Shown here one piece after another: positions 8,702 through 64,000 of a stretch of DNA of 64,000 nt; positions within the stretch are counted from its first letter, which is position 1, and each line of letters starts with the position of its first letter. The notes below the pieces were generated by a model, which saw only the letters and a program-made list of their open reading frames with translations, was not told where the DNA came from and made no database searches. Both the position numbers and the translations under genes were made by a program. Location of the stretch: positions 111,250 through 175,249 of the forward strand of contig CAVXYC010000018.1 in assembly GCA_963765765.1 (NCBI GenBank), written 5' to 3'. The DNA is from an uncultured Chloroflexia bacterium. GTDB lineage: Bacteria; Chloroflexota; UBA6077; JACCZL01.

Positions 8702-8705
8702 TTGG

Positions 8706-15206: not shown

Positions 15207-15248
15207 TTGTCATCTCGGGCCGGCCAATGGCTTACTGGAGAAGGAATC

Positions 15249-15995: not shown

Positions 15996-16023
15996 CCTCG
16001 AATGGACGACTATGCCGACTCCG

Positions 16024-16146
16024 TAGCGCGGTGGTCTTGTGCCTCGCGCCTCGAGGAACCTCAGGCCGTGAAACGTGCATGGACGAGGTGATTTCTCGAG
16101 GCGCGGGGCACAAGACCACCGCGCTACGGAGTCGGCTCGCATTCGA
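16024..16146. repeat. long GTAG-type palindromic element R1 (42-bp arms, 1 mismatch)
   Basis: gccgactccgtagcgcggtggtcttgtgcctcgcgcctcgag ... ctcgaggcgcggggcacaagaccaccgcgctacggagtcggc. Confidence 0.9.
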
Positions 16147-20525: not shown

Positions 20526-20613
20526 TTGTCATCCTGAGCTACAGCGAAGGATCTTCCCCACCGGAATCCGTCACACCCGCGGGGAAGATCTTCCCTGTGG
20601 CTCAGGATGACAA
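20526..20613. repeat. palindromic element S1 (gtcatcctgagc...gaaggatc family)
   Basis: ttgtcatcctgagctacagcgaaggatcttcccc ... ggggaagatcttccctgtggctcaggatgacaa. Same family as 33630-33728. Confidence 0.85.
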
Positions 20614-22289: not shown

Positions 22290-22383
22290 CGGGCTTCGCC
22301 GATGACGGACGACAGACGAGGGACGATCCCAACCACCAGGGGACCCAGTCCTCCGTCGTCCGTAATCCGTCGTTCAAACGGCA

Positions 22384-33629: not shown

Positions 33630-33728
33630 GGCCTTGTCATCCTGAGCATTTAGCGAAGGATCTATCCCAACTGCCTCAAGGAATCCAGCCGGGAAGATCC
33701 TTCGCTAGTCGCTCAGGATGACAGGGCC
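33630..33728. repeat. palindromic element S2 (gtcatcctgagc...gaaggatc family)
   Basis: ggccttgtcatcctgagcatttagcgaaggatct ... agatccttcgctagtcgctcaggatgacagggcc. Confidence 0.85.
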
Positions 33729-36568: not shown

Positions 36569-36883
36569 ATGGCAGTGCACAGCGCGACCAGCCCCCTGAC
36601 CCAGCGAGAGCTCATCGAACAGCACTTCGTGGAGCATCGAACGATGGTGCTTGACATCGCGGCCTTCCTCGATCGTCTGGATCGCGCCCGTGAGATCGAC
36701 GCTTCGGACGACTTCCGGCTCATCGCCTTCCGCAAGGCGCTCGAGGTGCTCTGCTCGGATGATCCTTCTCGGATTCACACAATCCAGATGGTCCTGAGCG
36801 ATCCGCGCTCCGAGCTCCTACCCGAGCTGGACCGCAAGAGCGCCTTCGGTGCCTACCCAACGCAGGAAACGGAGACCCGCTGA
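36569..36883 (+). CDS. hypothetical protein (sits where eboA sits in ebo operons; identity not established)
   Basis: ATG 36569 after gagagg. Its stop overlaps the next start (TGATG), implying translational coupling. Confidence 0.5.
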
Positions 36884-37727: not shown

Positions 37728-37929
37728 GCATCCCGTGAAGGTGCGGCTCCTCTCGTGATGTTCGCTGAATCGGTCAGAGCCGCGACCGTGAGGAAGCGGT
37801 TCCTTCACGACCGGTCGGACGGCGATCTCGCGAGGAACCGCTTACTTACGTGCGCGGCTCGAAGGCTGGCTAGGGAGTGTCATCCGGGACGGAAGTGTTC
37901 GTGAGAGGGTCCGCACCCTTACGGGATGC
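37728..37929. repeat. about 200-nt nested imperfect palindrome between the TatD-like and UbiA genes
   Basis: The outer arm gcatcccgtgaaggtgcggctcctctcgtgatg pairs with gttcgtgagagggtccgcacccttacgggatgc. The inner arm gagccgcgaccgtgaggaagcggttcc pairs with ggaaccgcttacttacgtgcgcggctc. Confidence 0.7.
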
Positions 37930-37951: not shown

Positions 37952-38842
37952 ATGTCTCCTGAAGCCCTTCCTTCCAGGGTGACTCACCGGAAGCGAATCC
38001 TTGGCTGGCTCACGTCAATGCGCCTGTCCAATAGCCCCACGGTCGTAAGTAACGTGTTAGTGGGGGCGGCGCTGGCTGGCATTCTCCAGCCAGATCATCC
38101 GTCTGTGGTGATGCTGGCCGTAGCAATGGTGCTCTATTACACAGCCGGCATGATTCTGAATGACGTGTGTGACTTCGCCTGGGACACGGTGCACCGCCCC
38201 AGCCGTCCCATGCCCGCCGGAGTCGTCTCGCGTGGGGCCGGCGCGGTGGCTGTCGTCGTGCTTTTCGCCGTCGGTACAGTGCTGCTCTGGTACGCCGGCG
38301 GCATCAACAGCGTCATCAGCGGCGTCATCCTCATCGGAGTCATCGCCCTGTACGACTTCTGGCACAAATCCAACCCAGCAAGCCCCCTGGTGATGGCATT
38401 GTGCCGTGTGCTGGTATACGTCACCGCGTTTGTTGCATTCGCATGGCCACTCACGGCATCACTCGGGATCGCGTCGCTCTTGCTTGTGCTTTACATGACG
38501 GGACTCACGGCGATCGCAAAGAGCGAAGTGCGCCCAAGCATGGTGGGTTATTGGCCCGCGGCGATTCTGTTCATGGGGCCATTCTTTTATGGAGTTCGCG
38601 GTGGATCGTTCCAGGCGGCCATCCTGGCAACCATGCTGGCAGGATGGATTCTGTACAGTCTTCACACGGTGTATCGAGAGGAAAGCAGAAACGTCGGTCT
38701 AGCCATTGGTCGCCTCATCGCCGGAATCTCGATGTTCGACGCGCTTGTGCTGGCTTCAGCGGGCGCCACGCAATCCATCATGGTGGCGCTGGTCGCCTTT
38801 GGTACAACGCTCGTCTTCCAGCGATACGTCGAGGGCACCTAG
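37952..38842 (+). CDS. eboC: UbiA-family aromatic prenyltransferase, EboC-like
   Basis: Asp-rich motif NDVCDFAWD, about 8 TM segments. ATG 37952 follows ggtgagag. Confidence 0.7.
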   Translation: MSPEALPSRVTHRKRILGWLTSMRLSNSPTVVSNVLVGAALAGILQPDHPSVVMLAVAMVLYYTAGMILNDVCDFAWDTVHRPSRPMPAGVVSRGAGAVAVVVLFAVGTVLLWYAGGINSVISGVILIGVIALYDFWHKSNPASPLVMALCRVLVYVTAFVAFAWPLTASLGIASLLLVLYMTGLTAIAKSEVRPSMVGYWPAAILFMGPFFYGVRGGSFQAAILATMLAGWILYSLHTVYREESRNVGLAIGRLIAGISMFDALVLASAGATQSIMVALVAFGTTLVFQRYVEGT

Positions 38843-38844
38843 AT

Positions 38845-40246
38845 ATGCAGAAGACCGCTGTCATTGACGTCGTCGGGCTGACACCCGATCTCATTGGGCC
38901 GCACACCCCCCGCCTGCAAGCGTTTCAGGCCGCCGGTAAAACAGCGAGCATTCAACCGGTCCTCCCCGCGGTAACGTGCGCCGCTCAGGCCACGTATCTC
39001 ACCGGCACCCTGCCCACTGAGCACGGCGTCGTTGGAAACGGCTGGTATTTCCGCGACGAGTGCGAGATCAAGTTCTGGCGACAATCGAATCGACTCGTGC
39101 AGCGTCCCAAGATTTGGGAACAGGCTCGCGAAGCTCGACCCCGCCTTCACCTGCGCCAACATGTTCTGGTGGTTCAACATGTACTCGTCCGTGGACGCCG
39201 CCGTCACTCCACGTCCGATGTATCCAGCCGATGGACGCAAGCTACCAGACGTCTGGGCCTCACCGGAGCATCTTCGAGGAAGGCTCCAGGCGGAGCTCGG
39301 GCAGTTCCCGCTCTTTCAGTTCTGGGGTCCCGGAAGCTCCATTGCCTCCAGCCAGTGGATTGCAGACGCCGCTCGCCTGGTGGATCAGTGGAACGATCCA
39401 ACCTTGAACCTGATCTATCTACCGCACCTGGATTACAGCCTGCAGAAGTACGGTCCTGACCACCAGCGCATCTCACAGGAACTGAAGGCCATCGACAAAG
39501 TCTGCGGTGACCTCATCGACCATTTTCAGGCTCGAGACTCCAGTATCGTCATGCTGTCTGAGTACGGCATCCGAGCCGTTAACCGCCCCGTCGATCTCAA
39601 TCGTCTTCTTCGGCAGCGGAGCCTCCTGGCCGTTCGCGAGGAGATGGGCCTCGAGCTGCTTGATGCGGGGGTGAGCCGAGCATTCGCCGTGGCCGATCAT
39701 CAGATCGCACACGTATACGTGAATGATCCCGAGTGCATGAACGAGGTCCGCTCGCTACTGGAGCAGACGGACGGCGTGGCGGAGATCCTGGACGACGAAG
39801 GTAAGCGCGCGCGGGGTCTGGATCATGAGCGCGCGGGCGACCTCATCGCTGTTGCAGAGCCAGACGCATGGTTCACGTATTACTACTGGCTGGATGACGC
39901 GCGAGCACCGGACTATGCGCGCACAGTGGAGATTCACCGAAAACCGGGCTACGACCCGGTAGAGCTGTTCCTGGATCCGGCAATCTCACTACCGAAACTG
40001 CGCATCGGTTCCATTCTGCTGAAGCGGAAGATCGGTTTTCGGTCACTCCTGGACGTCATCCCGCTCGACGCCTCGCTGGTCCGAGGATCGCACGGGCGCG
40101 TGACAACCGATCCCGGGCAATCACCCGTACTCTTGACTAACCGACCGTCGCTTCTCGAAAGCGAGGTCCTTCAGGCAACCGATGTCTACGGTGTGCTTCT
40201 CTCGCATCTACAGGATGCTGTCCGCGCTCTGAGCCCATCACGTTAG
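38845..40246 (+). pseudogene. eboF: alkaline-phosphatase-superfamily nucleotide pyrophosphatase/phosphodiesterase, EboF-like; frame change near 39128-39131
   Basis: MQKTAVIDVVGLTPDLIG..PAVTCAAQATYLTG..HGVVGNGWYF (frame of ORF 38401..39459), then KLDPAFTCANMFWWFNMYS...YLPHLDY... (ORF 39032..40246). Confidence 0.65.
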
Positions 40247-43349: not shown

Positions 43350-43455
43350 CTTTAGACCGCGGCGGTCTTCGCCACTTTGGCAACAGAGCGGAGAGACACG
43401 GAAGGGCGGCTTCTAGCTTGAGTGAGAATGCGGCGAAGACCGCCGCAGTCCAAAG
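43350..43455. repeat. palindromic element T2 (gcggcggtcttcgcc family)
   Basis: ctttagaccgcggcggtcttcgccactttgg ... gaatgcggcgaagaccgccgcagtccaaag. Confidence 0.8.
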
Positions 43456-51771: not shown

Positions 51772-52073
51772 GGAGTACTTACAGCATATACAGGTCGGGC
51801 TCAGCTCCAGCTAGAACGAGCCCGCGCCGCCACCCACGAATGACGGCCACGTCCCGCATGCATCCGTCACCGTGAACCGCACCGTCGTCGCCACTCCCCG
51901 GAGGAAAACAGCGATTCCGACCCGGCACCATTGCTTTGACGCATGCGCGTTGCACCTTCCAGCAGCGTGTTCGGTTCGGGGGCGAGCGTAGGGTTCACAA
52001 GGCCCCTGAGCTGAGTCCGACGCCGCTGGCTGATATATCCTGGCTTTGCATTCGCACGAGGACTGTTGCCCCA

Positions 52074-52449
52074 ATGGAACGAATTTTCTTCATAATTGGA
52101 TCCCTTCTGGCGTTCCTGGGCGTGGCGGCCGGTGCGTTTGGCGCACACGGCTTACGTGGACGTGTCTCGCCTGAGCTGATCGACGTATTCGAGACGGCCG
52201 CGCGCTACCATATCTATCACGCGCTGGGGCTCCTAGCCGTGGCTTGGGCAGTCTCGCGCTGGCCCGGCACGGCAACCACGGCCGCTGGATGGCTGTTCTT
52301 CAGCCGGCGTGGTGCTCTTCTCCGGCAGCCTCTATTTGATGACCTTCACCGGAATGCGCTGGCTCGGCGCGATCACCCCGCTCGGCGGAGTAGCCTTTCT
52401 GGCTGGTTGGGCCGCGTTGGCCTGGGCCGCCTGGCGCGGAACTGCATAG
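52074..52449 (+). pseudogene. DUF423 (YgdD/TMEM256-like) small membrane protein; frame change near 52300
   Basis: MERIFFIIGSLLAFLGVAAGAFGAHGL..ARYHIYHALGLL, then [29 protein letters not shown] in another frame. Confidence 0.7.
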
Positions 52450-53054
52450 GTACTCCACTAATTCGTCCTTTGCGTCCCTGCGGTCCCTTTAATCTCACCG
52501 GAAACTCTTCGCCGGCGGGATGGCGGGCAGGCGAGCTTTGGCCGCTTCTTCTCGGGGATCGTTACCTGGGCGGTCGCGTGACTCCAATGTCGGCAAGTCG
52601 CCCTCGCGTAGCGCTTCTATGTCGTCCACCAGGATGTTGATATTGCCGTCGCGGCACTGAAGGCGGCCGCGGACGATGACCATGGTCTCGCCACGAATGA
52701 TCGGTCGCTTGCGCTCATAGAGCGGCGGACGAATGATCGCGTTGGCCATACCCGTCTCGTCCTCCACCAGCAAGAACGTGAACCCCTGAGCGGTGCCCGG
52801 TCGCTGGCGGCACACCACCAGCCCGGCCACGCGCACCGGCCAGCCATCCGGTAACGCCTCCAGCTCCTCCGCTGAGACAATGTCGGACGGCAGCCGTGCC
52901 CGCATGAGCCCCAGAGGATGGAGTGACGGCGAGAGCCCCAGCGTGTGGTAATCCGCCACCATGCGCTCCCACGCGGTCATCTCTGGCCGCTCGATCATGT
53001 CCTGTTCCGTGCCGAAACCGAGAGGGAGGTTGCGGGGCGTGCCTGGGGAAGCTT

Positions 53055-53144
53055 CCTCGCCCCCTGGGAGAGGGTTGGGGTGAGAGAAGCTCGATTGCTT
53101 CTTTCGCGAGGCCCTCACCCCAGCCCTCTCCCAGGGGGCGAGGG
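53055..53144. repeat. GC-rich palindromic element P1 inside dnaE2 (translated in frame as ..LAPWERAGVRA...HPNPLPGGEE..)
   Basis: cctcgccccctgggagagggttggggtgag ... ccctcaccccagccctctcccagggggcgaggg. Confidence 0.9.
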
Positions 53145-53426
53145 AGCTCTTCCGACTTGGCTGCGGCTTCTTTTCCCGCCTCGATTGCTCCAGCAGCCCG
53201 TACTGCCACAACAGCTCACGACGGTTGAGCTGGAACGAGGGAAACGCGCCCAGCAGAATGAGGTTCTCCATGGCCGGGCGCTTGATGTCATACGCCGCGG
53301 TACGGTGAACGAAATCCTCGAGATCTCTGAACGGCCCGTTCCGCTCCCGTTCCGCTACGATCAACGCACTCATCTCTGAATTCAGGCTCCGCACCCGATC
53401 CAGCCCCAGGCGAACCGCGGACAACG

Positions 53427-53499
53427 TCGAGTGATGAGTCATGAGTGATGAGTCATGAGTACGGTCATCTTTACTCATCACCCATGACTCATCACTCGA
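53427..53499. repeat. heptamer-tandem hairpin H2 inside dnaE2 (read through in frame)
   Basis: tcgagtgatgagtcatgagtgatgagtcatgagta, loop, actcatcacccatgactcatcactcga. Translated as VSSDESWVMSKDDRTHDSSLMTHHS between conserved segments. Confidence 0.9.
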
Positions 53500-55195
53500 C
53501 ACCTGGTATGTCACCGTGCACTTCACGCCGCTCCGATTGATGTCCACCGGCAGCACGTGCACGCCGTGGCGGCGGCCGTCACCCACCAGCACGTGCGGCG
53601 CGTAGAAACCCATGGGCTGGTTGTTGAACAGGGCGCAGAGATACTCCGCTGGGTAGTGGTAGCGCAGCCAGGCGGATTGGAACGCCAGGATGGCAAAGGC
53701 CGCCGCGTGGCTTTTGGGGAAGCCAAATTCGGAGAAGCCCACCAGCTTGTCGAACACCTTGGTGGCGGTGGCTTCGTCCACATCGCGCTGTATGGCACCG
53801 TTCAGGAACTCCTCACGGAACGCCTGCATCGCTTCGGCAGAGCGCCGTCGGCTCATCGCTCTACGCAGGCCATCCGCTTGCCCTGAGCTGAAACCGGCCA
53901 ACTCCTCGGCCACCTGCATCACTTGGTCCTGGAAGAGCACCACGCCCAGGGTGTCGCGCAGCACCTCCTTTAGAGAAGGGTGGTCCACCTCGTAATCCGT
54001 GGCGCCCTGCCGCTGCCGCTCACGCTGGCGGACGTAGGGATTTACCGCGCCCCCCACGATGGGCCCGGGCCGAACGATGGCCACCTCGATAGCCAGGTCA
54101 TCCAGGTTGCGCGGCTGGGTGCGCGGCAGCATCTGAATCTGCGCACGACTCTCTATCTGAAACAGCCCCACGGTATCGCCCGCGCAGATCTGGTCATAGA
54201 TCTTGGGGTCGTCGTAATCGATCCGAGTGAGATCCTCCACTCGTCCCGTGTGTTGCCAGATGAGCTCCAGGCATTCCTCCACCAGTGAGAGCATGCCCAG
54301 CGCCAGGAAGTCCACCTTGATGAAACGCGCGTCATCGCACGAATCTTTGTCCCACTGGCAGATGTAGCGACCCTCCATGGCCGCCGGCTGCACGGGCACC
54401 AGCTCGATAATCGGGCGCGATGAGATGATCATCCCGCCCACGTGCTGACTCATGTGGCGCGGAAAGCCGGCAATCTGCCGGGCCAGCTCAATGAGGTGAC
54501 GCCAGATGGGTACGTGCACCAGGTCCTTGAGATCCGGCAGCCGCTCCATCTCCTGCTCCACGGTAGCCGCGGAGCCCCACTCGCTCAGCTTGGCCAGCTT
54601 GTCCAACGTGGGCGCCGGCAAGCCCAGCACCTTGCCCAGATCCCGCACGGCGCTGCGAATGTGATACGTGGCAAAGCTGCACACCAGCGCCGCGTGGTCC
54701 TTACCGTAGTGCTCGTACACCCGCAGGATGAGCTGCTCCCGAATGTCTCGCGCAAAGTCGAGATCGATATCCGGGACGGAGTGCATCGCATCGTTGAGAA
54801 AACGCCCTAGAAACAGATTGTTCTTGACCGGATCCACCTGAGAGAGGCCAATCAGGTAACAGACGATGGAGCTCACCGAAGAGCCGCGTCCCCGCCCGCA
54901 AGGCAGATTTGATTTGCCGCGCGCGGTATTGGATCCACCGCGGACGTCATTGGCCACTTCTCTGGCCATCTGCAGCAGATCGCGATACACGAGGAAAAAC
55001 CCGGACAGCCCGTGGCGCTCAATAAGCCCCAGCTCCTCACGCAGCCGCCCCACCGCGTCAACTCGTCCCGATGATCCTTCCGGATATTTCTCCTCCAGCG
55101 CCGCCCAGCAGTACTCACTCAACACCGCGTCTGCATCCGTGGCCATATCCTGCAGCGCGCCGATATTGGTGCCCGGAGCTTCATCAGAGGAGGCG

Positions 55196-55290
55196 CTCCC
55201 TCGCCCTTTGGGAGAGGGTTGGGGTGAGGGCCCTACGGTGGGGGATATCGAGCTTCCCTCACCCCAACCCTCTCCCAGGGGGCGAGGGAG
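55196..55290. repeat. GC-rich palindromic element P2 inside dnaE2
   Basis: ctccctcgccctttgggagagggttggggtgaggg ... ccctcaccccaaccctctcccagggggcgagggag. Confidence 0.9.
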
Positions 55291-55301
55291 ACGCCTCCCC
55301 A

Positions 55302-55422
55302 CCCCAGCCCTCCCCGTGCGCGGGGAGGGGGCCGGATTCTCCAGATTTCTCTGTCACAGCCCCCTCCCGGAGCAAATTTTCTCCATATCCGGCCCCCTCC
55401 CCGCGCACGGGGAGGGCTGGGG
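55302..55422. repeat. compound palindrome Q1 (36-bp perfect arms, each itself containing cctccccg-gcgc-ggggagg) inside dnaE2
   Basis: ccccagccctccccgtgcgcggggagggggccggat is the exact reverse complement of 55387-55422. The ORF break between 55302 and 55354 falls inside it. Confidence 0.9.
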
Positions 55423-56018
55423 TGGGGTCGTCCCCTCCGTCGCATCAGTCCCCTGAGTCCCAGAGGCCCCATACACCCCGCCCGGCCGCACATCCCTCCG
55501 AAACTCCGGAAACCGATACCCGAGATCCTCAGTCAGATCAAACTCGCTGCAACGCTCGGCAATCTCGCGGGTAGATTGAATGGCCTGAGGCAAATCGTGG
55601 AACCGTGCCGCCATCTCCGCCGGGGTCTGCAGAAAGAACTCACTGTTTGGTCGACGGAGCTGATGGGAGCCTTCCAATGTAGAGCGATGCTTGATGGCCA
55701 CCATGGCGTCCTGCAGCCGGTGTCGGGCGCGCTCGTGATAGTGCACGTTGCCCGTGGCCACGATGTCCACATTCAGTCGCTCAGCCAGCTCCACCAGGCG
55801 CAGCACGCGACGCTCATCGCCCTTCACCAGATGACGCTGCAGCTCCAGATACAGCGCGTGCCCGCCAAACAGATCGCGCAGCCAGCGACCGGCCGCTTCC
55901 GCCTCCGTCAGCCGCCCTTCATCGATAAGCTGGCACAGTAGCCCGTGTCGACAGCCAGACAGCGCGATCAATCCGCGCGTGCGCCCCTCCAGCGCCGCCG
56001 CCGGCAGACACGGCGCCT

Positions 56019-56105
56019 TCGCCCCTGGGAGAGGGTTGGTGAGGGCTCTTTCCACCGAACGAGGCTGATTGCTCTTCCCTCACGCCAACCCGCTCCCAGG
56101 GCGAG
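56019..56105. repeat. GC-rich palindromic element P3 inside dnaE2 (arms differ by a 1-nt indel; the frame changes here)
   Basis: tcgcccctgggagagggttggtgaggg ... ccctcacgccaacccgctcccagggcgag. Confidence 0.85.
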
Positions 56106-56428
56106 CATGGAGCCTGACACATTGCGACGCTCCGGGTCGCACGCATCCGTCAGCAGCCGACACAGGTTGGCGTAGCCCTCGGGATTCTCGGCCAGCAGCG
56201 TCAGGTGGCAGCGTCGACCGGATACGTCAAGCGTCAGCTCCGCCCCGGTGATCGGCTGGATCTCCACAATCTTTGCGTACTGGGCAAAGGCCATGGCGCC
56301 GGCAAGGTTGTCATGGTCGGTAATCGCCAGCGCCCGGTAGTCGAATTCGCAGGCGCTATTCATCAGCTCCTCGATCTGCGACGCGCCGTCCAGAAACGAG
56401 TACGCCGTGTGGAGATGCAGCTCTACAT

Positions 56429-56524
56429 AGTGATGAGTAGTGAGTGATGAGTGATGAGTCACCATCGGCAAGGATCTCTACTCATTACTCATGACTCATT
56501 ACTCATGACCCATTACTCATCACT
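56429..56524. repeat. heptamer-tandem hairpin H3 spanning the imuB stop / dnaE2 start junction
   Basis: agtgatgagtagtgagtgatgagtgatgagtcac, loop, tactcattactcatgactcattactcatgacccattactcatcact. One arm encodes the THHSSLTTHH at the dnaE2 N-terminus. Confidence 0.9.
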
Positions 56525-57091
56525 GCGTCTTTAGCGCTGGGCGTACCACTGGCCGTCCACCAGGTCTTTGTAGATCTCCAGGCGCTTTCCGCCTTCCAGC
56601 AGCACGCCAAAATACAGCCGGCTCACCGGCCGATTTCGCCACCACTCGTCATCAATGCGCCAGCGCTCCAGCACTTCAGCCACTCGGCGCCGGCTTCGCT
56701 GCCAGGTCACCGTTATCGGCGCGCCATCCTGATGCTCCACGCGAATTGCGTTCGGCTCGTTCAGAAATTGCAGTCGACCAGTGCCCAGCGACGCTCGGGA
56801 AAGCGTGACCACGGCTCCACCTCCATGATTCGATACAGTTGTCCGGCCGGGGCATCGCCAAAGCGCATGCGTAGCTGGCGCGCGGCCTCGGCCACACCCG
56901 TAAGCTGCCGGCGACGACCGCTCCACAGCTCCTCCTGCATCACGCTGGCGCCCTGCTTCAGCACCAGCGTTACTCCTAGCTCTGCCACCGCGCCCTCCGG
57001 ATGCGCATTGCCCAGCCGCCCACGCAGATGCTTCAGCGCCGTAGCAGCGCTGGCCACCGGCTCGCGCAGCGTGAAGGTGCGTTCCCAGGAC

Positions 57092-57189
57092 GAGTGAGCA
57101 GAGGTGAGAGGTCGGAGGTCAGAGGTCAGGAATCGTCTCCGATCACCTCGCTCATCACTGACCTCTGACCTCTGACCTCTGACCTCTCG
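57092..57189. repeat. heptamer-tandem hairpin H4 inside imuB
   Basis: gagtgagcagaggtgagaggtcggaggtcagaggtcagg, loop, (tgacctc-type units)x4. Read through as EVRGQRSEVSDERGDRRRFLTSDLRPLTS. Confidence 0.9.
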
Positions 57190-57702
57190 TCCTTCGCCCC
57201 ACGCCCGCAATGTGATCTGCTCCACAGAACGGCCTCGCGTCACCGGCAGACTGAAGGCGCGCACCAGCACACGCTCTAGCCCGGCCAGCAGCCCTTGAGA
57301 GCTCGCCACGGCGGATGGAAAGCGCAGCCGCGCCTCGGCCTTCAGCGCGCGAGCTCGGGGCTGGAACGGACGATCGTCCTGCCCGCACGCCAGCCTCCAG
57401 GCACGGCCGCCGGCCAGCGCCAAACTGTGCCTGTACCGGCCCCAGCGGCAACCCTGAGAGGGCGCCCAGCGTATGGAGCCCCTGCTGCTGAAAGCTGCGC
57501 GCAAGGTCCGGCGTGACCGGCAGCAGCACCGCCGGCAACGGCGCCAGAAACGACTTCTCCGCCCTCGCGGGCACAATGCTCACCTGCCCCGGGCTGTGCC
57601 TGCCGCGCCGCCGCCTCCGCCACAAACTTCCCCCGTGCCACCCCCAGCCGCGCCCGGAACATCGAGGGCACGGAGCGGAGGATGATCTGGAGATCGCTTT
57701 GC

Positions 57703-57786
57703 GAAGTGAAGAGTGAAGAGTGAAGAGTGAAAGACGGCAGTGTGGGTGGCTCATTCTCCACTCTTAACGCTTCACTCTTCACTTCC
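57703..57786. repeat. heptamer-tandem hairpin H5 inside imuB
   Basis: gaagtgaagagtgaagagtgaagagtgaaag, loop, tccactcttaacgcttcactcttcacttcc. Read through as KEVKSEALRVENEPPTLPSFTLHSSLFTS. Span as drawn is 84 nt. Confidence 0.9.
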
Positions 57787-58173
57787 TTCCCCAGCGCCTC
57801 CACATCACAGAACACCACCCCCAGCCCGGCCGGCTCCACCGGGCCAATGACCTTCTCCAGGTCATCCAGCACCTGCTCAAACCGCTGGGCGTAGAGCACC
57901 GGATCAGGCGGCACCATCACCAGCTCACGACACAGCGCCAGCGCCTCCCGAGCCGGCATGCCCGGGCGCACACCCACGGCCGCGGCCTCAGGAGAGCACT
58001 CCAGAATCTCGGGCCGTTGCCCCACGCCGGAGGTGAGCGCCAACGGCGCGCCGTCCTGCGCGGCATTACGCATCGTCTCCACACGCAGCGCAAAATGCGG
58101 CAGCAGGAGGCAGCCGATCATTTGCCTGGCCATCACTCGTCCCCTCCAGCCGGGCCCTGGGGCCGCGGGCGTC

Positions 58174-58686
58174 CTACCCGTCCCCGGCTTTCCGGTGGGA
58201 CGGGCGTCCCTGCCCGTCGCGGCCTGGAGGGCCGCCCCTCGAACACAGCGAGCGGTGACGGGGAGTACTGGAGGCGGGCTCGACGCCCGCGACGGGCAGG
58301 GACGCCCATCCCACCGGTGGAAAAGGAACGCTCCCCGGCCCTGCGGTACAGCCGTCCATCACTCGTCTCCCCGGAGCGTTCGTCCCGGCCGCCATGGACC
58401 CGCGCGAAGACCGCACCCGCACGCCGGCGGCAGAACGCCGCCCCGCGCTGAGCTGGGTGTCCACCGCGGCGTACAGTCCGCTGGCAGAAAGCCCCAGCGC
58501 CAGGCCGCGCATCACCGCGCCGGCCATCGTGATGCCGTCATCCGCCGCGATGAGGCTGAGCGCCAGGCCCAATGCCAGCGCCATCGGAGCCGCCCACCGC
58601 GCGCTCAGCCCCGTACCCTTGGCCACCTCCACCAGCCCAATGATCACCGGTACCACCAGCACACCGAAGAATTCCGTTGTATCCAC
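58174..58686 (-). CDS. phage holin, A118/Hol118-like (3' part of the ORF runs through a repeat and is probably not genuine)
   Basis: MDTTEFFGVLVVPVIIGLVEVAKGTGLSARWAAPMALALGLALSLIAADDG..GLALGLSASGLYAAV matches the Hol118 layout (TM, K-T-x-L, W, TM, DG, TM, GL). The C-terminal 100 aa overlap element U1. Confidence 0.6.
   Translation of the reverse strand: MDTTEFFGVLVVPVIIGLVEVAKGTGLSARWAAPMALALGLALSLIAADDGITMAGAVMRGLALGLSASGLYAAVDTQLSAGRRSAAGVRVRSSRGSMAAGTNAPGRRVMDGCTAGPGSVPFPPVGWASLPVAGVEPASSTPRHRSLCSRGGPPGRDGQGRPSHRKAGDG
58192..58317. repeat. palindromic element U1 (gggacgggcgtccctgcccgtc family)
   Basis: ccggtgggacgggcgtccctgcccgtcgcgg ... ccgcgacgggcagggacgcccatcccaccgg. A degenerate half copy lies at 58161-58187. 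Confidence 0.85.
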
Positions 58687-58703
58687 AACCGTCCCCCTGA
58701 CGG

Positions 58704-58802
58704 GAGTTAAGAGTGAAAAGTTAAGAGTGAAATTGAGATTGTCGAAATCAAATCAGCTTCCCCAGTGCCATTCTTAACTCTTAACTTTTTCACTCTTAAC
58801 TC
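58704..58802. repeat. heptamer-tandem hairpin H6 (intergenic, tail-like gene to holin)
   Basis: gagttaagagtgaaaagttaagagtgaaattgagatt, loop, tcttaactcttaactttttcactcttaactc. Confidence 0.9.
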
Positions 58803-58809
58803 AACCTCC

Positions 58810-60630
58810 TCACGCCTCCAACAACCTCAAGCTGCCTCTCAACTGCGTTCCCATCCGTTGGCTCATCTTGGCCCCCTTCTCCTCGTAGTCCAGCAGCCAC
58901 ACATTCCGACTCACCCCGTCCAGATCCACATACGTCAGCGGCCCCGCCTGACCGGCAATGCCCCACAACGCCGTGCTGAGCTGCGCGCTTGTCTGCGAGC
59001 TATTGCTCCCATCCAGCAGCACCATCGGCATCTGCCCGCTCCCCTCGATGAGGCAATCGAACTCCCACACGCGCTTGACGCCCGGCGCCGGCCGACAGCG
59101 CATCTCGAGCGAGAAGAACCGCAGCGGCGTGGCCCCGCCAGCAGGGCCCGTCAGGATCACTCGGAACGCGATGAGCTTGCCCGCCACCGCCGCGCCAAAC
59201 GTGAACGTCGCCGTGGTGCTACTCGTCGTGCTGTTCGTGCCCAGGCTCGTCCACGCGCCGGTGTCCTCCAGGCGGTACTGCACCTGCACGCTCTGACCCG
59301 CCAGCAGCGCCGCGTGGTTGATCGTGACGCTCCGAAACACTTTCGTCACGCCCGGCAGCCGCGCATCGATCAGCCCCGTCTCCAGCGTCGCCGCCGCCTG
59401 ATGGAGGTCGCTCCGAACCCTGAGCATGAACCAGTTGGTCGTACTGAGCTGGGCAATCACGTAGAGATCGCCACCAAACCACGCCAGGCTCTGCGCGCGA
59501 CCATTGCCGGCCATCGCGGCCACGGCCACCGGCTCGCTCCATCCGACTGATCCGCCTGAGGCGGAGGCCGCTCCGTCGTAGCGCTTCAGGCCCACGCCGG
59601 CCCCGTCCGAGAACGCCATCCAGAAGCCCCCGCGACCGCTTGCCGTGGCGCCCAGCGCTCCGCCCGCGTACGGGATCGTCAGTGGATGCGGGATGGGCTC
59701 AACGTCGCCATTCCGCCAGCGGTACACCACCGGGTAGGCCGATGAGCCGCGCTGGCCCACCAGGTAGCTGGCATCTCCCAGCACGCTCCCACCCAGCAGG
59801 CTCACGCCATCGATCGTCGTCGTAAACGCCCATTGCTCGGAGGCCGCGTTGTCCTTCAGGGTGTACACGCCCGTCCGCGCGCCGCTGCCCATCTGTGTCC
59901 CGCAGAACACCGCCGTTGTCCCAATCACCTGCGGCTGCACGCGACAGCTCGGCTCGTTGAGCTGGTAGCGCAAGGCGGAGAGCGTTGCCCCGTCCGTGTA
60001 ATAGACTCGGCACCCGTCCGGCGCCTCACCCACCAGGTACAGGTAGGCCACCGAGCCCCGATAGAACACGCCCATGCTGTAACACGCGGTGACCGGCGGC
60101 GGCAGCGTCACAAAGACGTCGGTGTAGGTCGCTCCATCCCATCTGGCAATGCTGCCGTTGCCCGTTTTGCCAACGTAGAGCTTGCCCTGATACTCGGCAA
60201 AGCTCGCCGCTCGACCGCCCGTGGCCAGCGTAAACGGCGCCCCCAGCGACGCCCCATCCCAGCTCACCACCGCGCCGCCGTTGGCCCCGTGGTAGTACTT
60301 GCCGAGTGCCGCGATGGATGGTCCGGGCGAGAGGTCATTGACGCCGGCGTTCACCTGGGCGGCATGCGGCCCCTGCCGAGCCGCGCCGGGCTCGGTCCAT
60401 GGATCCAGGCCCGGACCAAACCGGTATCGCCCGGGCTCGTCCTCATCGTGCCGGGTGAAGCCCTCACCGCCGCTCCAATCGTCGATGAGCACAGCCATTT
60501 CGTTCCGCAGGTCCCCGTAGCCGCGATCCCCCGAAGACGTCTTCGGCGCAAACGGGTCGGCCAACGTCCGCCGATAGCTCTGCACATCCAGCAGCAGCCC
60601 CTGCCCGGCCAGCATCACGTGATAAGTCAT
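58810..60630 (-). CDS. phage tail/adsorption-like protein: N-terminal beta-propeller-like repeats plus a C-terminal phage-type domain
   Basis: Start set at MTYHVMLAGQGLLLD. About seven repeats of the type G.LYVG..G.I.RWDG. The C-terminal about 200 aa resemble phage tail/tubular proteins (my recollection, not a search). The upstream 18 codons of the track ORF lie in repeat H7. Confidence 0.5.
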   Translation of the reverse strand: MTYHVMLAGQGLLLDVQSYRRTLADPFAPKTSSGDRGYGDLRNEMAVLIDDWSGGEGFTRHDEDEPGRYRFGPGLDPWTEPGAARQGPHAAQVNAGVNDLSPGPSIAALGKYYHGANGGAVVSWDGASLGAPFTLATGGRAASFAEYQGKLYVGKTGNGSIARWDGATYTDVFVTLPPPVTACYSMGVFYRGSVAYLYLVGEAPDGCRVYYTDGATLSALRYQLNEPSCRVQPQVIGTTAVFCGTQMGSGARTGVYTLKDNAASEQWAFTTTIDGVSLLGGSVLGDASYLVGQRGSSAYPVVYRWRNGDVEPIPHPLTIPYAGGALGATASGRGGFWMAFSDGAGVGLKRYDGAASASGGSVGWSEPVAVAAMAGNGRAQSLAWFGGDLYVIAQLSTTNWFMLRVRSDLHQAAATLETGLIDARLPGVTKVFRSVTINHAALLAGQSVQVQYRLEDTGAWTSLGTNSTTSSTTATFTFGAAVAGKLIAFRVILTGPAGGATPLRFFSLEMRCRPAPGVKRVWEFDCLIEGSGQMPMVLLDGSNSSQTSAQLSTALWGIAGQAGPLTYVDLDGVSRNVWLLDYEEKGAKMSQRMGTQLRGSLRLLEA

Positions 60631-60635
60631 AGCGA

Positions 60636-60697
60636 GAGTGATGAGTAATGAGTCATGGTGACGAGTAGATGAGTGATGAGTCATAAGTAATGAGTGG
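60636..60697. repeat. tandem heptamer array H7 (gtgatga/gtaatga/gtcatga units, one orientation only)
   Basis: gtgatgagtaatgagtcatggtgacgagtagatgagtgatgagtcataagtaatgagtgggg. Spans the stop of the hydrolase gene and the 5' end of the tail-like ORF. Confidence 0.8.
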
Positions 60698-61517
60698 GGA
60701 GGGATGCGTCCGCGTCCCGCTGCTGACTACTCATTCCTTTCTGGGCATTTCCGAAGGCCGCCATCAGGCCGGGGTCGCGCAGGAGACTGAACTGCCAGAA
60801 CGCCTCGTCCGGGCTATCCAGGATGAAGTACACCGCGCCTTCCAGGCCGGGCGTCTCCGCCAGATCGCGGCATACGCGATCGAACGGCACGCGGTTGAAC
60901 TCGGTCACCAGCAGCGGCCGCTGGATGCCCGCCATCTCCAGCATCTCTCGGCAGCGTCGGTGCAGCCCCCAGCCATCCGCGTAGGCGTGCACGTCCACCA
61001 CGTCATAGAGCGGAATCACCGGCTCCAGCTCACGCCAGTACTGGATGGCGCGCTCGCTGTTCTCGCCCGTCCAGCCGCTCCACGGAGCCGGCAGATGCAG
61101 GCGATCCTGCGGTCGCAGCGCGCGATAGACCTCCGCAAACGCGCTGAGCCAGGTGCGATGACGAGCGTAATCGTCGTGCCCGTTCTCCGCCGCGCCCGGC
61201 CAGTTCATCTCATTGGCCGGGATCACCTCACCGGTGCTGGACTCAAAGAACACCGTGGCGCGGCGAGCACATTCCACCGCCCAGGCAGCCGGGTCGCGTT
61301 GCGGAATATCGCGCGCGTAGCAGCGCAGCAGTGGCACGCTGCCGCGCGCTCGAAGTCGGGCCGCCAGCGTGCTGTGCTGGCCCAGCCCCTCCCACTCCTG
61401 TATGTCATGCGCCAGAAACAGCGTGTGCCGCGGCCGCAGCCGCGCCAACGCCCCCAGCGTCGGCCGATCATACGCCCCGGCCACATTAGGGGTTTGAATA
61501 CCTAAGAGATGCTGCAT
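60681..61517 (-). CDS. TIM-barrel glycoside-hydrolase-like protein (possible phage lysin or depolymerase)
   Basis: Clan GH-A-like pair of acidic motifs: ..IPANEMNWPG.. and ..RPLLVTEFNRV.. . Start set at MQHLLGIQ. Weak, motif-level call. Confidence 0.45.
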   Translation of the reverse strand: MQHLLGIQTPNVAGAYDRPTLGALARLRPRHTLFLAHDIQEWEGLGQHSTLAARLRARGSVPLLRCYARDIPQRDPAAWAVECARRATVFFESSTGEVIPANEMNWPGAAENGHDDYARHRTWLSAFAEVYRALRPQDRLHLPAPWSGWTGENSERAIQYWRELEPVIPLYDVVDVHAYADGWGLHRRCREMLEMAGIQRPLLVTEFNRVPFDRVCRDLAETPGLEGAVYFILDSPDEAFWQFSLLRDPGLMAAFGNAQKGMSSQQRDADASLPTHYL

Positions 61518-61532
61518 AAATCCCTTCCAGAC

Positions 61533-61628
61533 GGCCCCCTCCCCGCGCACGGGGAGGCATGGGTGGGGTCGTCCCTCGCTCGCTTATAGCTAGGAGACCC
61601 CCTCAGTCCCCCCATGCGCGGGGGGAAG
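61533..61628. repeat. palindromic element Q2 (same family as the right half of Q1)
   Basis: ggccccctccccgcgcacggggagg..gggtggggtcgtccc..cctcagtcccc..tccccccatgcgcgggggga. Shares strings with 55391-55470. Confidence 0.8.
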
Positions 61629-61642
61629 GCGGTTATTGAGCG

Positions 61643-62531
61643 CTAGGCGTTATTGATTCCTTTGATTCGGGCCAGGGCGGAGTCGCGCAGGATGGCGATG
61701 CTCACGTACCAGCGGATGCGCACGCGGGTGGCGTCCTTGGTCTGGAGCTGGCCCACGTCCAGCACCTCCAGGCCGCCGTTCTGCAGACCCACCACGCCGT
61801 CACCTTCATCGAAGTGGATGGCGTAGATGCTGGAGGTGGCGTTGTCCGTGCCCTGCGTCTCCGCATCAGGCTGGAAATCGCTAATCTCCACGGGCACGCC
61901 GTCGTACAGCATGACCTGTCGACCAAACGCGTTCTCACCGCGCTCCACGTAGTGCGCGCTGGCCTGCAGCAAGCTCTTCAGCTTGCGACGCGTCCGTCGA
62001 CTCATCAACAGCAGCGTGGGCTTGCCGCCCAGAATCAGGTCCATCACCTGATCCAGCAGCGCCAGCGTCAGCGGCCCGCCGTTGGTCGCCACGCTGATCG
62101 TCTGACCCGCGGCCACCTGCTTGCGAATGCCGTCGAACGCGTTCGCATCCACGCCGGTATCGCCGGTGATGAACGTGTCCTCAAACTTGCGGGCCACGCT
62201 CTTGGCCTTGAGCTGAGTCTGGATAGCCTGCTGATTCTGGAGACTGGAGCGCGTGCGCTGGATGAAGTTATCCACGTCCGCGTCGCCACCCAGAATCGCC
62301 AGACTGGCCGTCTTGTTGGAGAACGTGCTGGTGGCCTCCGTCCAGGTGCCATCCACCGCGTAGAACGCCGCGCCACCCAGCACATTCTCCTGGTTGTATT
62401 TGTAAAACTGGACACAATGTGCTCGTCCTGACGTGGACCGACCGAAACGAGGCGGCCTCGAAGGGGGTCTGAGAGGCCTTGGGACAGCCTCAACGCTCTG
62501 GCAAATCACTCCGACTCCTCACACTCTTCAT
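61643..62531 (-). pseudogene. phage major capsid protein (HK97-fold type), 5' end degraded (in-frame TGA and a frame change in the first 40 codons or so)
   Basis: ..ILGGDADVDNFIQ.., ..KPTLLLMSRRTRRKLKSLL.., ..SSIYAIHFDEGDGVVGLQNGGLEVLDVGQL..RVRIRWYVSIAI are typical capsid-family strings. ATG at 62529-62531 gives MKSVRSRSDLPER, then TGA, then the main ORF 61643..62509 in another frame. Confidence 0.6.
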
Positions 62532-62536
62532 CACTT

Positions 62537-62554
62537 ATAGAACTTATGTTCTAT
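62537..62554. promoter_or_regulatory. candidate LexA (Cheo-type) box ATAGAAC-TTAT-GTTCTAT
   Basis: Perfect 7-bp inverted arms around GAAC-N4-GTTC in an AT-rich patch, 6 nt upstream (minus strand) of the first ATG of the capsid-like gene. Confidence 0.55.
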
Positions 62555-62587
62555 TTCTAGAGTAGTCCTTAGTGGTCCCTTGATGCG

Positions 62588-62872
62588 TCATGAGGCGCAC
62601 CAATCCGGGCATTCTGGCGACGGAAATAACCCCTGTCGCAGATCGGAAGTTATGGGTAGTGAGGCGGGTGGCTGGCGCCGCGACGCTAGCGCCGGTTCTC
62701 GAGGAAGCTCGATCAAGCCGCGACGAAGAGCGACCGCGAGGGCCGCTTGCGCCGTGTGGCAACCCAGTCGCTTCATTGCGGAGCGGACGTGCGTCCGAAC
62801 CGTGTGCTCGCTCAGGACGAGCTGGTCAGCGATCGCCCGTCGCGACTTGCCAAGAGCCAGGAGGCTGAGCAC
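62588..62872 (-). CDS. LuxR/GerE-type helix-turn-helix domain protein (no canonical start upstream of the HTH; possibly the C-terminus of the preceding gene)
   Basis: (LRPRERE)VLSLLALGKSRRAIADQLVLSEHTVRTHVRSAMKRLG. The frame is open upstream to about 62990, but ATG/GTG/TTG are absent before the GTG at 62872, which lies inside the domain. Confidence 0.7.
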   Translation of the reverse strand: MLSLLALGKSRRAIADQLVLSEHTVRTHVRSAMKRLGCHTAQAALAVALRRGLIELPREPALASRRQPPASLPITSDLRQGLFPSPECPDWCAS

Positions 62873-62939
62873 TTCTCGCTCACGTGGCCGCAGGTACGGC
62901 TCGTTGTTACCGGCTCGACCCAGAATGATTCCAGGTTCC

Positions 62940-63722
62940 TCAGGGCAACTCGAGGACGGGCTGGAAGTGCTTTTGCTCGCACCACGAGCTGCCTAAGAGC
63001 TGAGAGGTCCGCTCGTGCAGAATCTCTTCGTGAGCCCCTGCTGGCATGATGCAGAAAAGCCTGCGTGAGCCGCGACAAAACTGGACAGCCCAGACTCGAT
63101 TGACATTCAGTCGTTCACGGATCTCCGCAATCCGACGGCGAGCTTGCACCTCGGCCGATGCCCTCCGGTCGACATGCTGATACACCACGAGACTTTGGCC
63201 ACGCTGCAGGAACGGCAGTAGCTCATCGAAGAACGCGTATTTAGGCCCGCGCGCGCGGAACGGCCCCGTGGAACCGACCTGGAGCCCGTTATCGGGATCG
63301 ACGAACACAAGCTCACACCCCTGAGTGGCCGCCATAGCGTCCTGGACCCACGTGTGCCTATAAATCCGGCGCTCGCCAGGCACCATATCCCGAAATGAGA
63401 GTTGTTCGGCGAAGTATCGAGTCGAGCTCGGGAAGAGATTAAGCTCGTGGATCGCAGAGACACGACGCTCTCCTCGCGTAATCAGTGTCGCGAGTCGCTC
63501 GTACAAGTCAGGGTCGCAACTCCTGAACCGAGCATTTAAGAGATTCTCACCGAGCAGGTAGGAAACATGCTTCCCGTCATCATTGTGGGACTCGTCGGGC
63601 ACCAAGTACCAAACGATCCCCAAATCGAGAAAGGGCTCCGCTCGCGGCTCGACCCCGCAGAGCCACCGAAGAAGTCCGAACTTTCCGAAGTCGCCCACGT
63701 CACCCGCGTATCGGTCCTGCAC
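62940..63722 (-). CDS. uncharacterised conserved-looking protein (260 aa)
   Basis: MQDRYAGDVGDFGKFGLLRWL.., ..CELVFVDPDNGL.., ..QSLVVYQHVDR.. . The motif order recalls RlmJ-like Rossmann proteins (HAGNxxDxxKH ... DPPY), but the DPPY equivalent reads DPDN. No family assigned. Confidence 0.55.
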   Translation of the reverse strand: MQDRYAGDVGDFGKFGLLRWLCGVEPRAEPFLDLGIVWYLVPDESHNDDGKHVSYLLGENLLNARFRSCDPDLYERLATLITRGERRVSAIHELNLFPSSTRYFAEQLSFRDMVPGERRIYRHTWVQDAMAATQGCELVFVDPDNGLQVGSTGPFRARGPKYAFFDELLPFLQRGQSLVVYQHVDRRASAEVQARRRIAEIRERLNVNRVWAVQFCRGSRRLFCIMPAGAHEEILHERTSQLLGSSWCEQKHFQPVLELP

Positions 63723-63871
63723 GAATGTTTACTCCACAACCCATCCGGCGTTTCACAAGGATCGCCCTGACTTCAGGCCGATCAGAGGTGCCGCGAGCAG
63801 CGAGCCGATTTGCTCCTGCAATGCACTTGAGGACGTAATGACGACCACGTTGTCAGACGATGGCTACAGAA

Positions 63872-63949
63872 CACCGTCCGCAGCGTCCAGAGCGTCCAGG
63901 CCACAATCCCCAGACTGGGCGCTGTGGACGGTGTGGACGCTGTGCGGGG
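63872..63949. repeat. heptamer-type hairpin H8 (gcgtcca units)
   Basis: caccgtccgcagcgtccagagcgtccagg, loop, ctgtggacggtgtggacgctgtgcgggg. Confidence 0.75.
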
Positions 63950-64000
63950 CCCCTGTTTGGAGGACGAGTCGAAATTGTTCGCGATGGGCCTGGCGCGTTC

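Follow-up and report, generated by a model that had tools for sequence, protein, structure and literature searches.

Hairpins with tandem-heptamer arms occupy a few fixed slots, with changing contents, in and around imuB-dnaE2 of a Chloroflexota bacterium

Along the minus strand of the 64 kb stretch analysed here (hereafter the window; part of contig CAVXYC010000018.1 from an uncultured Chloroflexia bacterium), positions 52495-62551 hold a block of genes comprising a head-like gene, a 289-amino-acid (aa) open reading frame (ORF), a 624-aa ORF, a holin gene, imuB, a small ORF and dnaE2. Hairpins whose arms consist of tandem 7-nucleotide (nt) units are found in the gaps between these genes and inside imuB and dnaE2, the two mutasome genes. 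We show that the hairpins occupy a few fixed slots, namely the gene gaps of the block and a few turns of ImuB and DnaE2, and that these slots are long-lived while their contents change, in unit number, in the unit on both arms together, or by nesting or replacement. Arrays were detected by lag-based self-similarity (periods 4-12) and by Tandem Repeats Finder, hairpins were scored by RNA folding z-score against 200 shuffles, reading frames were placed by tblastn with orthologues, and domains were assigned with Pfam. The mutasome genes and the repeat elements considered first, with the six heptamer hairpins labelled E1 to E6, are as follows:

52495-56471, minus strand: dnaE2, with PHP, polymerase, finger, HhH and OB domains (Pfam); carries five palindromic insertions, plus E3 at its start
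56531-56836, minus strand: small ORF of about 100 aa with the motif WRIDDEWW ... LV.G.W, between imuB and dnaE2
56764-58136, minus strand: imuB, with an IMS domain (Pfam); readable in three frames, which change near 57592 and 57415
8603-8701, no strand assigned: hairpin E1, with (GCGAGTA)5 = (GTAGCGA)n arms; z = -6.0; closed in all six frames
53426-53500, minus strand: hairpin E2, with GAGTGAT/GAGTCAT arms; in frame in dnaE2; z = -8.75
56429-56524, minus strand: hairpin E3, with AGTGATG arms; between the small-ORF stop (56531) and dnaE2
57088-57199, minus strand: hairpin E4, with GAGGTCA arms; lies in frame within imuB, at the turn joining 'RAWGE' and 'SSWERTF'
57703-57785, minus strand: hairpin E5, with AGTGAAG arms; lies in frame within imuB, flanked by 'DVEALG' and 'DLQIILRSVP'
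58704-58802, no strand assigned: hairpin E6, with GAGTTAA/GAGTGAA arms; fills the space that separates the 624-aa ORF from the holin gene
60636-60697, no strand assigned: (GAGTNAT)n array with a single arm, where the 289-aa and 624-aa ORFs meet; z = -0.8
63871-63944, no strand assigned: hairpin of similar architecture with a 9-nt period and the arm unit AGCGTCCAG; z = -5.1
22301-22367, no strand assigned: weak intergenic heptamer hairpin with (GACGGAC)3 arms; missing from the list of the initial annotation

Self-similarity with a period of 7 stands out in the window, with 11 tracts against 0-3 for each other period from 4 to 12, and Tandem Repeats Finder recovers the same heptamer arrays. The initial annotation, made from the sequence alone, had described eight elements of one architecture, and this description holds for six. 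E1-E6 are hairpins with tandem-heptamer arms that are 83-100% complementary; their folding z-scores range from -5.6 to -8.8, none of the 200 shuffles folds equally well, and five of the six fall within 5.5 kb (scan statistic P = 0.0014). The remaining two depart from this pattern, the array at 60636-60697 being one-directional and the hairpin at 63871-63944 having a 9-nt period. The latter lies downstream of a 260-aa ORF (62940-63722), outside the conserved block.

The proposal that the copies share structure rather than sequence was true only in part. Their loops are unrelated and their units differ; however, five of the six units have a GAGT core (GAGTGAT, GAGTCAT, GAGTGAA, GAGTTAA and GAGTAGC; the sixth is GAGGTCA), and units form families that recur across the sites of each genome. 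The unit of the 5′ arm keeps a constant orientation in the five window hairpins that were scored, and in nearly all paired arrays of the relatives. E1, the hairpin furthest from the block, is located at the 3′ end of a major facilitator superfamily transporter gene (7395-8624, plus strand), where its array, (GTAGCGA)n, contains GTAG and provides the TAG stop of that gene. Searches of Pfam, NCBIfam and PHROGs gave no match for the hairpins, Rfam gave no match at gathering score anywhere in the window, and no hairpin is among the 7 terminator-like sites predicted in 52000-64000.

Relatives of the locus were collected by a DnaE2 scan, which yielded 80 genome loci (Chloroflexota, then Gemmatimonadota, at 51-57% identity) and 80 metagenome loci; the metagenome scan with DnaE2 returned no relative closer than 57%. 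The metagenome loci served solely as a second enrichment set and overlap in part with the genome set. The best relatives of DnaE2 and ImuB are in Chloroflexota metagenome-assembled genomes (MAGs). Two close relatives were represented by contigs of 13 kb and 4.5 kb. The contigs cited most often below are L082 (91.5% identical to the window), L081 (a Joint Genome Institute (JGI) short-read contig, 83% nucleotide identity to the window), L227 (a short-read JGI contig) and L230 (an NCBI MAG contig whose positions 1-8765 cover the block).

E2, E4 and E5 lie inside genes, and the suggestion that they are read through in frame without stops was borne out. Each is contained in a continuous, single-frame tblastn match to orthologues that has no stops, and each is open in just one of the six frames, namely that of its gene; E1, E3 and E6 are closed in all six. 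As GAGTGAT, GAGTGAA and TGACCTC (the reverse complement of GAGGTCA) contain TGA, a perfect hairpin of such units must hold a stop on the coding strand. The three intragenic hairpins have in-stem mismatches at the would-be stops (TGA to TGG in E2, where this is the sole in-stem mismatch, TGA to CGA in E4, and GAGTGA to GCGTTA in E5), and restoring perfect stems would create in-frame stops in all of them. E2 with the identical TGG change is in frame within an intact 839-aa dnaE2 ORF of L081; E5 is conserved in frame in L227, and hairpins in the E4 slot are in frame in L228 and L229. Across 160 loci (consensus assemblies), every one of the 111 intragenic period-7/8 arrays of ImuB and DnaE2 is in frame and open, which argues against frequent phase-off states. 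The peptides encoded through the inserts include THHSSLTTHHYVELH and EVRGQRSEVSDER; E2 encodes ~24 residues (SSDESWVMSKDDRTHDSSLMTHHS). Intron-like removal of the inserts and ribosomal bypass were rejected, because neither would demand a length that is a multiple of 3 and a stop-free sequence in every insert. An origin of the elements as assembly artefacts was also rejected, since the same elements recur in independent assemblies (L081, L082 and L227-L230).

A further claim of the initial annotation was that one element supplies the first codons of dnaE2, and this is supported for E3. The dnaE2 frame opens just after a TAG inside E3, upstream of the conserved YVELH, and the sole possible start codons (TTG 56471, ATG 56465 and GTG 56462) are all in the E3 loop; the 3′ arm then encodes VTHHSSLTTHH ahead of YVELH. 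Its 5′ arm starts 7 nt past the stop codon of the upstream small ORF. The intact dnaE2 of L230 begins MGKECSVIHHSSPITHHYVELH, likewise with its start codon in a hairpin loop and with the same geometry as in the window. E3 varies in unit number: its arms hold 6.5 and 4.5 units in the window, but 3.5 each in L082.

The small ORF between imuB and dnaE2 was present in all such cassettes of Chloroflexota and Gemmatimonadota (87 loci; for example L162 4819-5127), and it has no match in Pfam, NCBIfam or PHROGs. The possibility that it is a frameshifted tail of imuB, an apparent fourth frame, was rejected as it is a separate conserved gene in the relatives. A heptamer array forms its first codons in some Gemmatimonadota.

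Alignment with orthologues shows that the E2, E4 and E5 segments are insertions and not native conserved protein, as had been anticipated; they are absent from distant orthologues, whose sites are empty. The E2 site is a turn between two β-strands just before the helix-hairpin-helix region, and it corresponds to residues 880-886 of Taq Pol III alpha (2HPI), which form a turn of 7 residues. An AlphaFold2 (AF2) model of P0002 also places E2 between two strands, with a predicted local distance difference test score (pLDDT) below 50, although the mean pLDDT of this model is a moderate 68 and the placement is thus weak support only. The more general notion that DnaE2 insertions are hairpin-derived was rejected after a screen of the multiple sequence alignment, in which most proved to be ordinary variable linkers and period 7 was seen only at the E2 slot.

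Comparison of close relatives reveals how the contents of a slot change. At the E4 slot, the units are (GAGGTCA)n in the window and L082, (GGCGAGA)n in L228, and (GAGTAGC/GAGTACC)n in L229, whilst L230 has a short hairpin; the 3′ arm complements each genome's own 5′ unit, and L082 differs from the window by a matching 1-nt insertion in both arms. All E4-slot inserts are multiples of 3 nt except that of L082 (122 nt), which is an indel-noisy contig. The E5 slot is occupied by GC-rich palindromes in L082 and L230. Alignment of L082 4749-4945 with window 53419-53505 shows a GC-rich dimer of the repetitive extragenic palindrome (REP) type nested in E2, with remnants of the heptamer arms on both sides. 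In L230, a (GACGGAG)n array of more than 157 nt occupies the E2 slot and runs to the contig end, a hairpin fills the gap homologous to that of E6, and a full heptamer hairpin stands at the place homologous to 60636-60697.

A slot near the C-terminus of Gemmatimonadota DnaE2 behaves in the same manner. It is empty (63 nt) in four loci and filled in 26 by inserts of 42-78 nt, every one of them a multiple of 3 nt and most folding into a clear hairpin. The insert families are unrelated, being GCGGAAT, GCGGAAC, GCGGATT, GCGTGCG or GGGGACG heptamers or non-periodic REP-like palindromes. L103 and L128, which are 92.8% identical overall, have different inserts at this slot, and L120 equals L104 plus exactly three heptamers (+21 nt).

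Enrichment of 7-nt arrays at imuB-dnaE2, as first proposed from the window, extends to other loci of two phyla. Because the locus sets overlap in part, they were de-duplicated at 95% identity, leaving 141 loci, among which 75 period-7 arrays were counted in 600 kb of cassette and 35 in 1,247 kb of flank, a 4.5-fold excess with a nominal p = 2e-14 that overstates independence, since related loci inherit shared slots. Period-8 arrays were enriched 5.3-fold (54 in cassettes and 21 in flanks), and periods 6, 9, 11 and 12 gave values of about 1-fold, i.e. no enrichment. The periodicity of seven reported for the window hairpins therefore stands for the window, whilst across lineages the unit is of 7 or 8 nt. 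Period 8 as a detection artefact was rejected, as 0 of 86 period-8 tracts overlap a period-7 tract and genuine octamers occupy the same slots. Octamer arrays (CCGTCCGA, GGAATGAT and TACCGCCC) were seen at ImuB and junction slots of other Gemmatimonadota; examples are L032 8065-8107, L036 7972-8052 and L061 5908-8900, with nine period-8 arrays within 3 kb in L061.

Array sites recur in other lineages. ImuB has a hairpin ~12 residues downstream of where E5 lies, arrays stand on both sides of the small ORF, and DnaE2 carries a one-armed array exactly at its E2 slot as well as a hairpin ahead of its C-terminal motif. The units are specific to each genome and are common to its slots and flanks. Similar arrays also occur in viral contigs: a scan of IMG/VR contigs for (GAGTNAT)3 returned 64 stretches (L163-L226), with 267 period-7 tracts in 571 kb against 9-43 for each other period (5, 6 and 8-12), and 59 of the period-7 tracts have an inverted partner within 130 nt. 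Several of these contigs (e.g. L178, L219, L221, L171, L208 and L210) are dense in heptamer arrays of several unit families, at ~1 per kb, and the viral units are both low-GC (GAGTTAT, GAATTAT) and high-GC (GAGTGAT, GGGTAAT, GCGGAAT, AGCTATC).

Heptamer hairpins are not the only palindromes of the window. At least 14 further palindromes are GC-rich, ~100 nt long and of several families (CTCACCCCAACCCTCTCCCAGGGGGCGAGGG; CCCCAGCCCTCCCCGTGCGCGGGGAGGG dimers; GGGACGGGCGTCCCTGCCCGTC; TTGTCATCCTGAGC), and are intergenic except in dnaE2. These, together with two further genes of the block, are:

53050-53148, minus strand: GC-rich palindrome of the 'GEGWGEG' family, non-periodic, in frame in dnaE2; L081 has an empty site
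55196-55290 and 55297-55427, minus strand: pair of adjoining GC-rich palindromes in dnaE2, within an insert of 345 nt in all (55150-55494) that preserves the frame
56013-56112, minus strand: GC-rich palindrome in the PHP domain of dnaE2; the reading frame changes across it
1991-2098, 2714-2838, 15106-15207, 16014-16136, 20526-20613, 33630-33728, 36734-36846: GC-rich palindromes
37777-37860, 43350-43455, 53050-53148, 55196-55427, 56013-56112, 58164-58317, 61531-61633: further GC-rich palindromes, including those in dnaE2 described above
61643-62509, minus strand: phage major head-like gene (phrog_212, Pfam SU10_MCP)
58174-58686, minus strand: holin gene (phrog_1299)

All seven intragenic hairpin elements in the window (three heptamer and four GC-rich) are in imuB or dnaE2, and 16 of the remaining 17 listed elements are intergenic. 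The exception, 16014-16136, is placed at the very 5′ extremity of a long ORF, whose true start probably lies downstream of the element.

In L230 the entire block is retained, its ORFs being intact and the homologous gene junctions carrying heptamer hairpins. Between L230 and the window, the head protein is 91% identical in amino acid sequence, the unassigned 289-aa ORF 83%, the likewise unassigned 624-aa ORF 69% and the holin 90%; ImuB reaches about 72-77%, the small ORF 64% and DnaE2 75%; thus, the head protein and holin are more conserved than ImuB or DnaE2. The block has the appearance of a phage-derived module, domesticated or shared, that is joined to the mutasome, rather than of a decaying prophage. 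Given this conservation, the concentration of hairpins around imuB-dnaE2 proposed initially is better described as a property of the 10-kb block than of imuB-dnaE2 alone; the arrays are enriched there as claimed, but they span the block, and the GC-rich palindromes are equally concentrated. The window's only GAACNNNNGTTC palindrome (AGAACTTATGTTCT, which is SOS-box-like) is found at 62540-62551, ~30 nt upstream of the block's first gene, the head-like one. Its position fits LexA control of the block, with a chance expectation of 0.72 such palindromes per window, so that the sequence alone is no proof.

The elements also affect the assemblies in which they occur. At L227 820-1113, a (TCTCGCC)n array in the E4 slot runs directly into an unrelated gene (MRFTVLGTGTSHGVPMIGCDCPVC...); unit families of L227 recur elsewhere in that genome, and this is probably a chimeric join via an identical array. 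The L081 and L230 contigs also begin or end inside repeats. Such cases indicate that the elements break and mis-join assemblies.

We favour, with a probability of roughly 0.6, the interpretation that these are non-autonomous palindromic repeats akin to REPs, to the REP doublets termed REPINs and to Rickettsia palindromic elements (RPEs), whose stems are built of 7-nt (in some lineages 8-nt) tandem units. The arrays would turn over by replication slippage, and hairpin-templated (quasi-palindrome) template switching would keep the two arms complementary; quasi-palindrome correction by template switching is an established mechanism. Other palindromic families of the genome would insert within the hairpins, giving nested elements. 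Accumulation in the block would reflect rarely expressed, accessory DNA whose proteins tolerate insertions in loops. The intergenic copies probably act as REP-like intercistronic mRNA hairpins, with E3 predicted to occlude the dnaE2 start unless the small ORF upstream is translated, and the intragenic copies are probably passengers.

Several points weigh against this interpretation. Neither identical dispersed copies nor a target-site duplication were found, loops are unrelated between copies, and mobility of the heptamer hairpins is accordingly not demonstrated; the single comparison of an empty with a filled site, which concerns a GC-rich palindrome and L081, shows no evident duplication. 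No transposase turned up, although neither in the window nor in the loci was a search aimed at transposase genes. That the block is weakly expressed is an assumption, and the comparison within this genome and its close kin covers the 64 kb and the 13-kb and 4.5-kb contigs of two close relatives. As imuB and dnaE2 are broken in the window itself, translation in this strain assumes that 1-2-nt indels are errors. The enrichment p-values ignore the shared ancestry of slots, and come from locus sets that overlap in part. Finally, a 4.5-fold excess over flanks that include intergenic DNA is not obviously explained by tolerance alone.

Closest to these elements among published cases are the REP/REPIN elements found within repair genes and, in Xanthomonas, inverted pairs of (GGGAATC)n. 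REPs inside genes favour those for replication and repair, among them DnaE2; such genes are in many cases the sole ones with a REP in their genome, and a TAG stop is frequently contributed by GTAG REPs (Di Nocera et al. 2013, PMC3733652). The elements described here are alike in being hairpins of ~70-110 nt with two inverted arms and a variable spacer that fold as one hairpin; in lying mostly between genes of the same orientation or just after stops, with E1 likewise supplying a TAG stop; and in their intragenic copies, which are in frame, encode 20-30 residues and favour replication and repair genes (PMC3733652). They differ in that their arms are tandem 7-8-nt units, whereas a REP is a single imperfect palindrome of 20-40 nt. 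REP/REPIN copies are near-identical, whilst the six copies in 64 kb share only the GAGT-type core and have unrelated loops, although unit families recur. REPs are further associated with a RAYT (Y1 HUH) transposase and a GTAG or CGTC end tag, and the lineages differ, the hosts here being Chloroflexota and Gemmatimonadota.

Comparison with other palindromic elements is less close. Simple copy-and-paste of one MITE (miniature inverted-repeat transposable element) does not fit, as the initial annotation had argued, because loops are unrelated and units differ; of the features expected of MITEs, a conserved internal sequence is lacking and no target-site duplication is seen at the one comparison. 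The likeness to Rickettsia elements that had been pointed out is apt as regards mechanism, since both are palindromic inserts of ~100 nt that are translated in frame in functional genes, apparently at permissive sites, and are absent from orthologues. However, Rickettsia palindromic elements are sequence families with a conserved consensus in one genus and have no short-unit periodicity, and we know of no description of their slot-wise replacement by unrelated elements.

Tandem heptamers are themselves widespread. Heptamer simple sequence repeats (SSRs) are over-represented in bacteria generally, and Xanthomonas genomes contain 70-75 convergent (GGGAATC)n pairs each, able to form stem-loops (Rehm et al. 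2015, PMC4692102, and work cited there). As in our elements, the Xanthomonas arrays are tandem heptamers, typically of ~4 units, whose length and sequence vary strongly between close species at the same intergenic place, but one G-rich, quadruplex-prone unit is used per genome, the cases studied are intergenic, and neither coding copies nor a link to imuB-dnaE2 are reported. TAACTGA heptamer arrays occur near start codons in Beggiatoaceae, with one inverted case among 170 sets (PMC4679880). The resemblance to cyanobacterial short tandemly repeated repetitive (STRR) sequences suggested initially is confined to the heptamer unit. STRRs and other such arrays share tandem heptanucleotides, several families per genome, a frequent position by start codons and a suspected regulatory role, but they are mostly direct, occur in low-GC hosts with other units, and are not described as translated; the host here is a Chloroflexota bacterium, and the units are GAGTNAN or GAGGTCA.

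The alternative that we take most seriously, while judging it unlikely, is that the hairpins are selected cis-regulatory structures of an SOS-type operon, acting as intercistronic mRNA stabilisers or attenuators and as translation dampers or couplers that would hold the error-prone polymerase at a low level and make it depend on translation of the genes upstream. In the window and L230 alike, almost all gene junctions of the block carry hairpins; the dnaE2 start is in a hairpin loop in both, with a hairpin likewise placed in L082 and the 5′ arm so close to the small-ORF stop; and some Gemmatimonadota have arms on either side of the small ORF that extend over the stretch immediately upstream of the dnaE2 start. 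Heptamer arrays near the start codons of the LexA-regulated recF and recO of Nostoc are reported to affect expression (bioRxiv 10.1101/2022.06.06.494920). Slot positions are also kept while the sequence changes and the arms still pair; however, any palindromic insert has paired arms, such that covariation alone is not evidence of selection. Furthermore, many orthologous cassettes have empty slots, some occupants are one-armed arrays unable to fold, and no hairpin scores as an intrinsic terminator. The long-range arrangement around the small ORF is found in only 8 of 58 cassettes, and was rejected on this count as a universal coupling device.

That imuB and dnaE2 are dead pseudogenes, and the hairpins junk in neutral DNA, is very unlikely, although the state of the genes in the window prompts the idea. 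Neither is an uninterrupted ORF in the window: imuB is readable only in three frames, and tblastn places dnaE2 in two, with the change at the GC-rich palindrome 56013-56112 and an in-frame TGA at 55354-55356, within the second of the two adjacent palindromes (L230 has only the first, in frame and open). Seven palindromic insertions in about 5.3 kb of coding sequence add to this impression. Nevertheless, the frame breaks are probably assembly noise and not proof of pseudogenes, because other genes of the window are frameshifted as well (Phosphodiest, 38401-40246; DUF423, 51936-52640), because 8 kb of mostly coding DNA shows 23 indels of 1-2 nt between the window and L082, and because relatives have intact genes (imuB in P0121 and P0123; dnaE2 in L230; the long ORF of L081), with their slots occupied. 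Both the window and L082 look like indel-noisy long-read assemblies, which makes pseudogene calls here unsafe. No frame break of either gene is inside a heptamer hairpin (those of imuB fall outside hairpins altogether), and the three intragenic heptamer hairpins are in frame, purged of stops and open only in the frame of their gene.

We give little credence to the idea that the arrays are footprints of local DNA synthesis, be it slippage or fold-back by the mutasome acting in cis or the healing of breaks by reiterated unit addition. Addition of the same unit to both 3′ ends would directly yield the form (unit)n-filler-(reverse-complement unit)n, with the unrelated loops as 'filler', and the idea accommodates units that are genome-specific and common to several sites, as well as an enrichment limited to periods 7 and 8 and to mutasome genes. 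The constant polarity of the 5′-arm unit agrees with it too, but is equally expected of a repeat family derived from a master copy. The same arrays occur far from imuB-dnaE2 and are dense in viral contigs, one-armed arrays exist, and we know of no bacterial enzyme that makes such additions.

Contingency loci, in which gain or loss of a 7- or 8-nt unit would shift the frame and switch the mutasome on or off, are highly improbable. As in such loci, coding sequence contains short tandem units of a length not divisible by 3, their number varies between relatives, and genes in the window have frame breaks. These breaks are not in arrays, however; none of the 111 intragenic arrays is out of frame, length differences are multiples of 3 nt (e.g. 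the +21 nt noted above), and the arrays are short, with only 3-5 units, and paired with an inverted copy. Lastly, native protein-level repeats selected for function in ImuB or DnaE2 can in practice be dismissed: the inserts are translated and long retained at fixed sites, but the peptide at one slot is unrelated between close relatives, the period is in nucleotides (7 or 8) and not codons, the same units are found in intergenic DNA, and E2 is modelled with low pLDDT.

In-frame palindromic repeats in repair genes, including DnaE2, were published in 2013, and SSR-armed hairpins therefore vary a known theme, which since then has lacked numbers and explanation. Our literature searches turned up no account of hairpins with SSR arms in imuB-dnaE2, of slots conserved across phyla or of an enrichment specific to certain periods. 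New here are a quantified, period-specific enrichment (7- and 8-nt arrays about 4.5-5-fold denser across 141 loci of two phyla), a full record of compatibility with translation (111 of 111 arrays in frame), and snapshots of slot turnover between close relatives, in which units are replaced on both arms, lengths change in steps of three units and one element nests in another. The arrays matter in practice too: they break short-read assemblies, cause chimeric joins, and make gene callers split or truncate imuB and dnaE2.

The imuB-dnaE2 cassette drives damage-induced mutation and drug resistance in other bacteria, and for its palindromic repeats a vague association becomes a set of testable alternatives: tolerance, regulation or self-inflicted mutagenesis. 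It is doubtful, on present evidence, that imuB-dnaE2 of at least two phyla keeps slots whose nucleic-acid structure matters to the mutasome, or that the arrays are the mutasome's own signature in cis. Were the former true, the slots would provide a fragile or stalling site, or an mRNA structure, tying the error-prone polymerase to replication stress or to upstream translation; were the latter true, the arrays would record the slippage or fold-back synthesis of the mutasome. Either would explain the long-noted preference of intragenic palindromic repeats for replication and repair genes.

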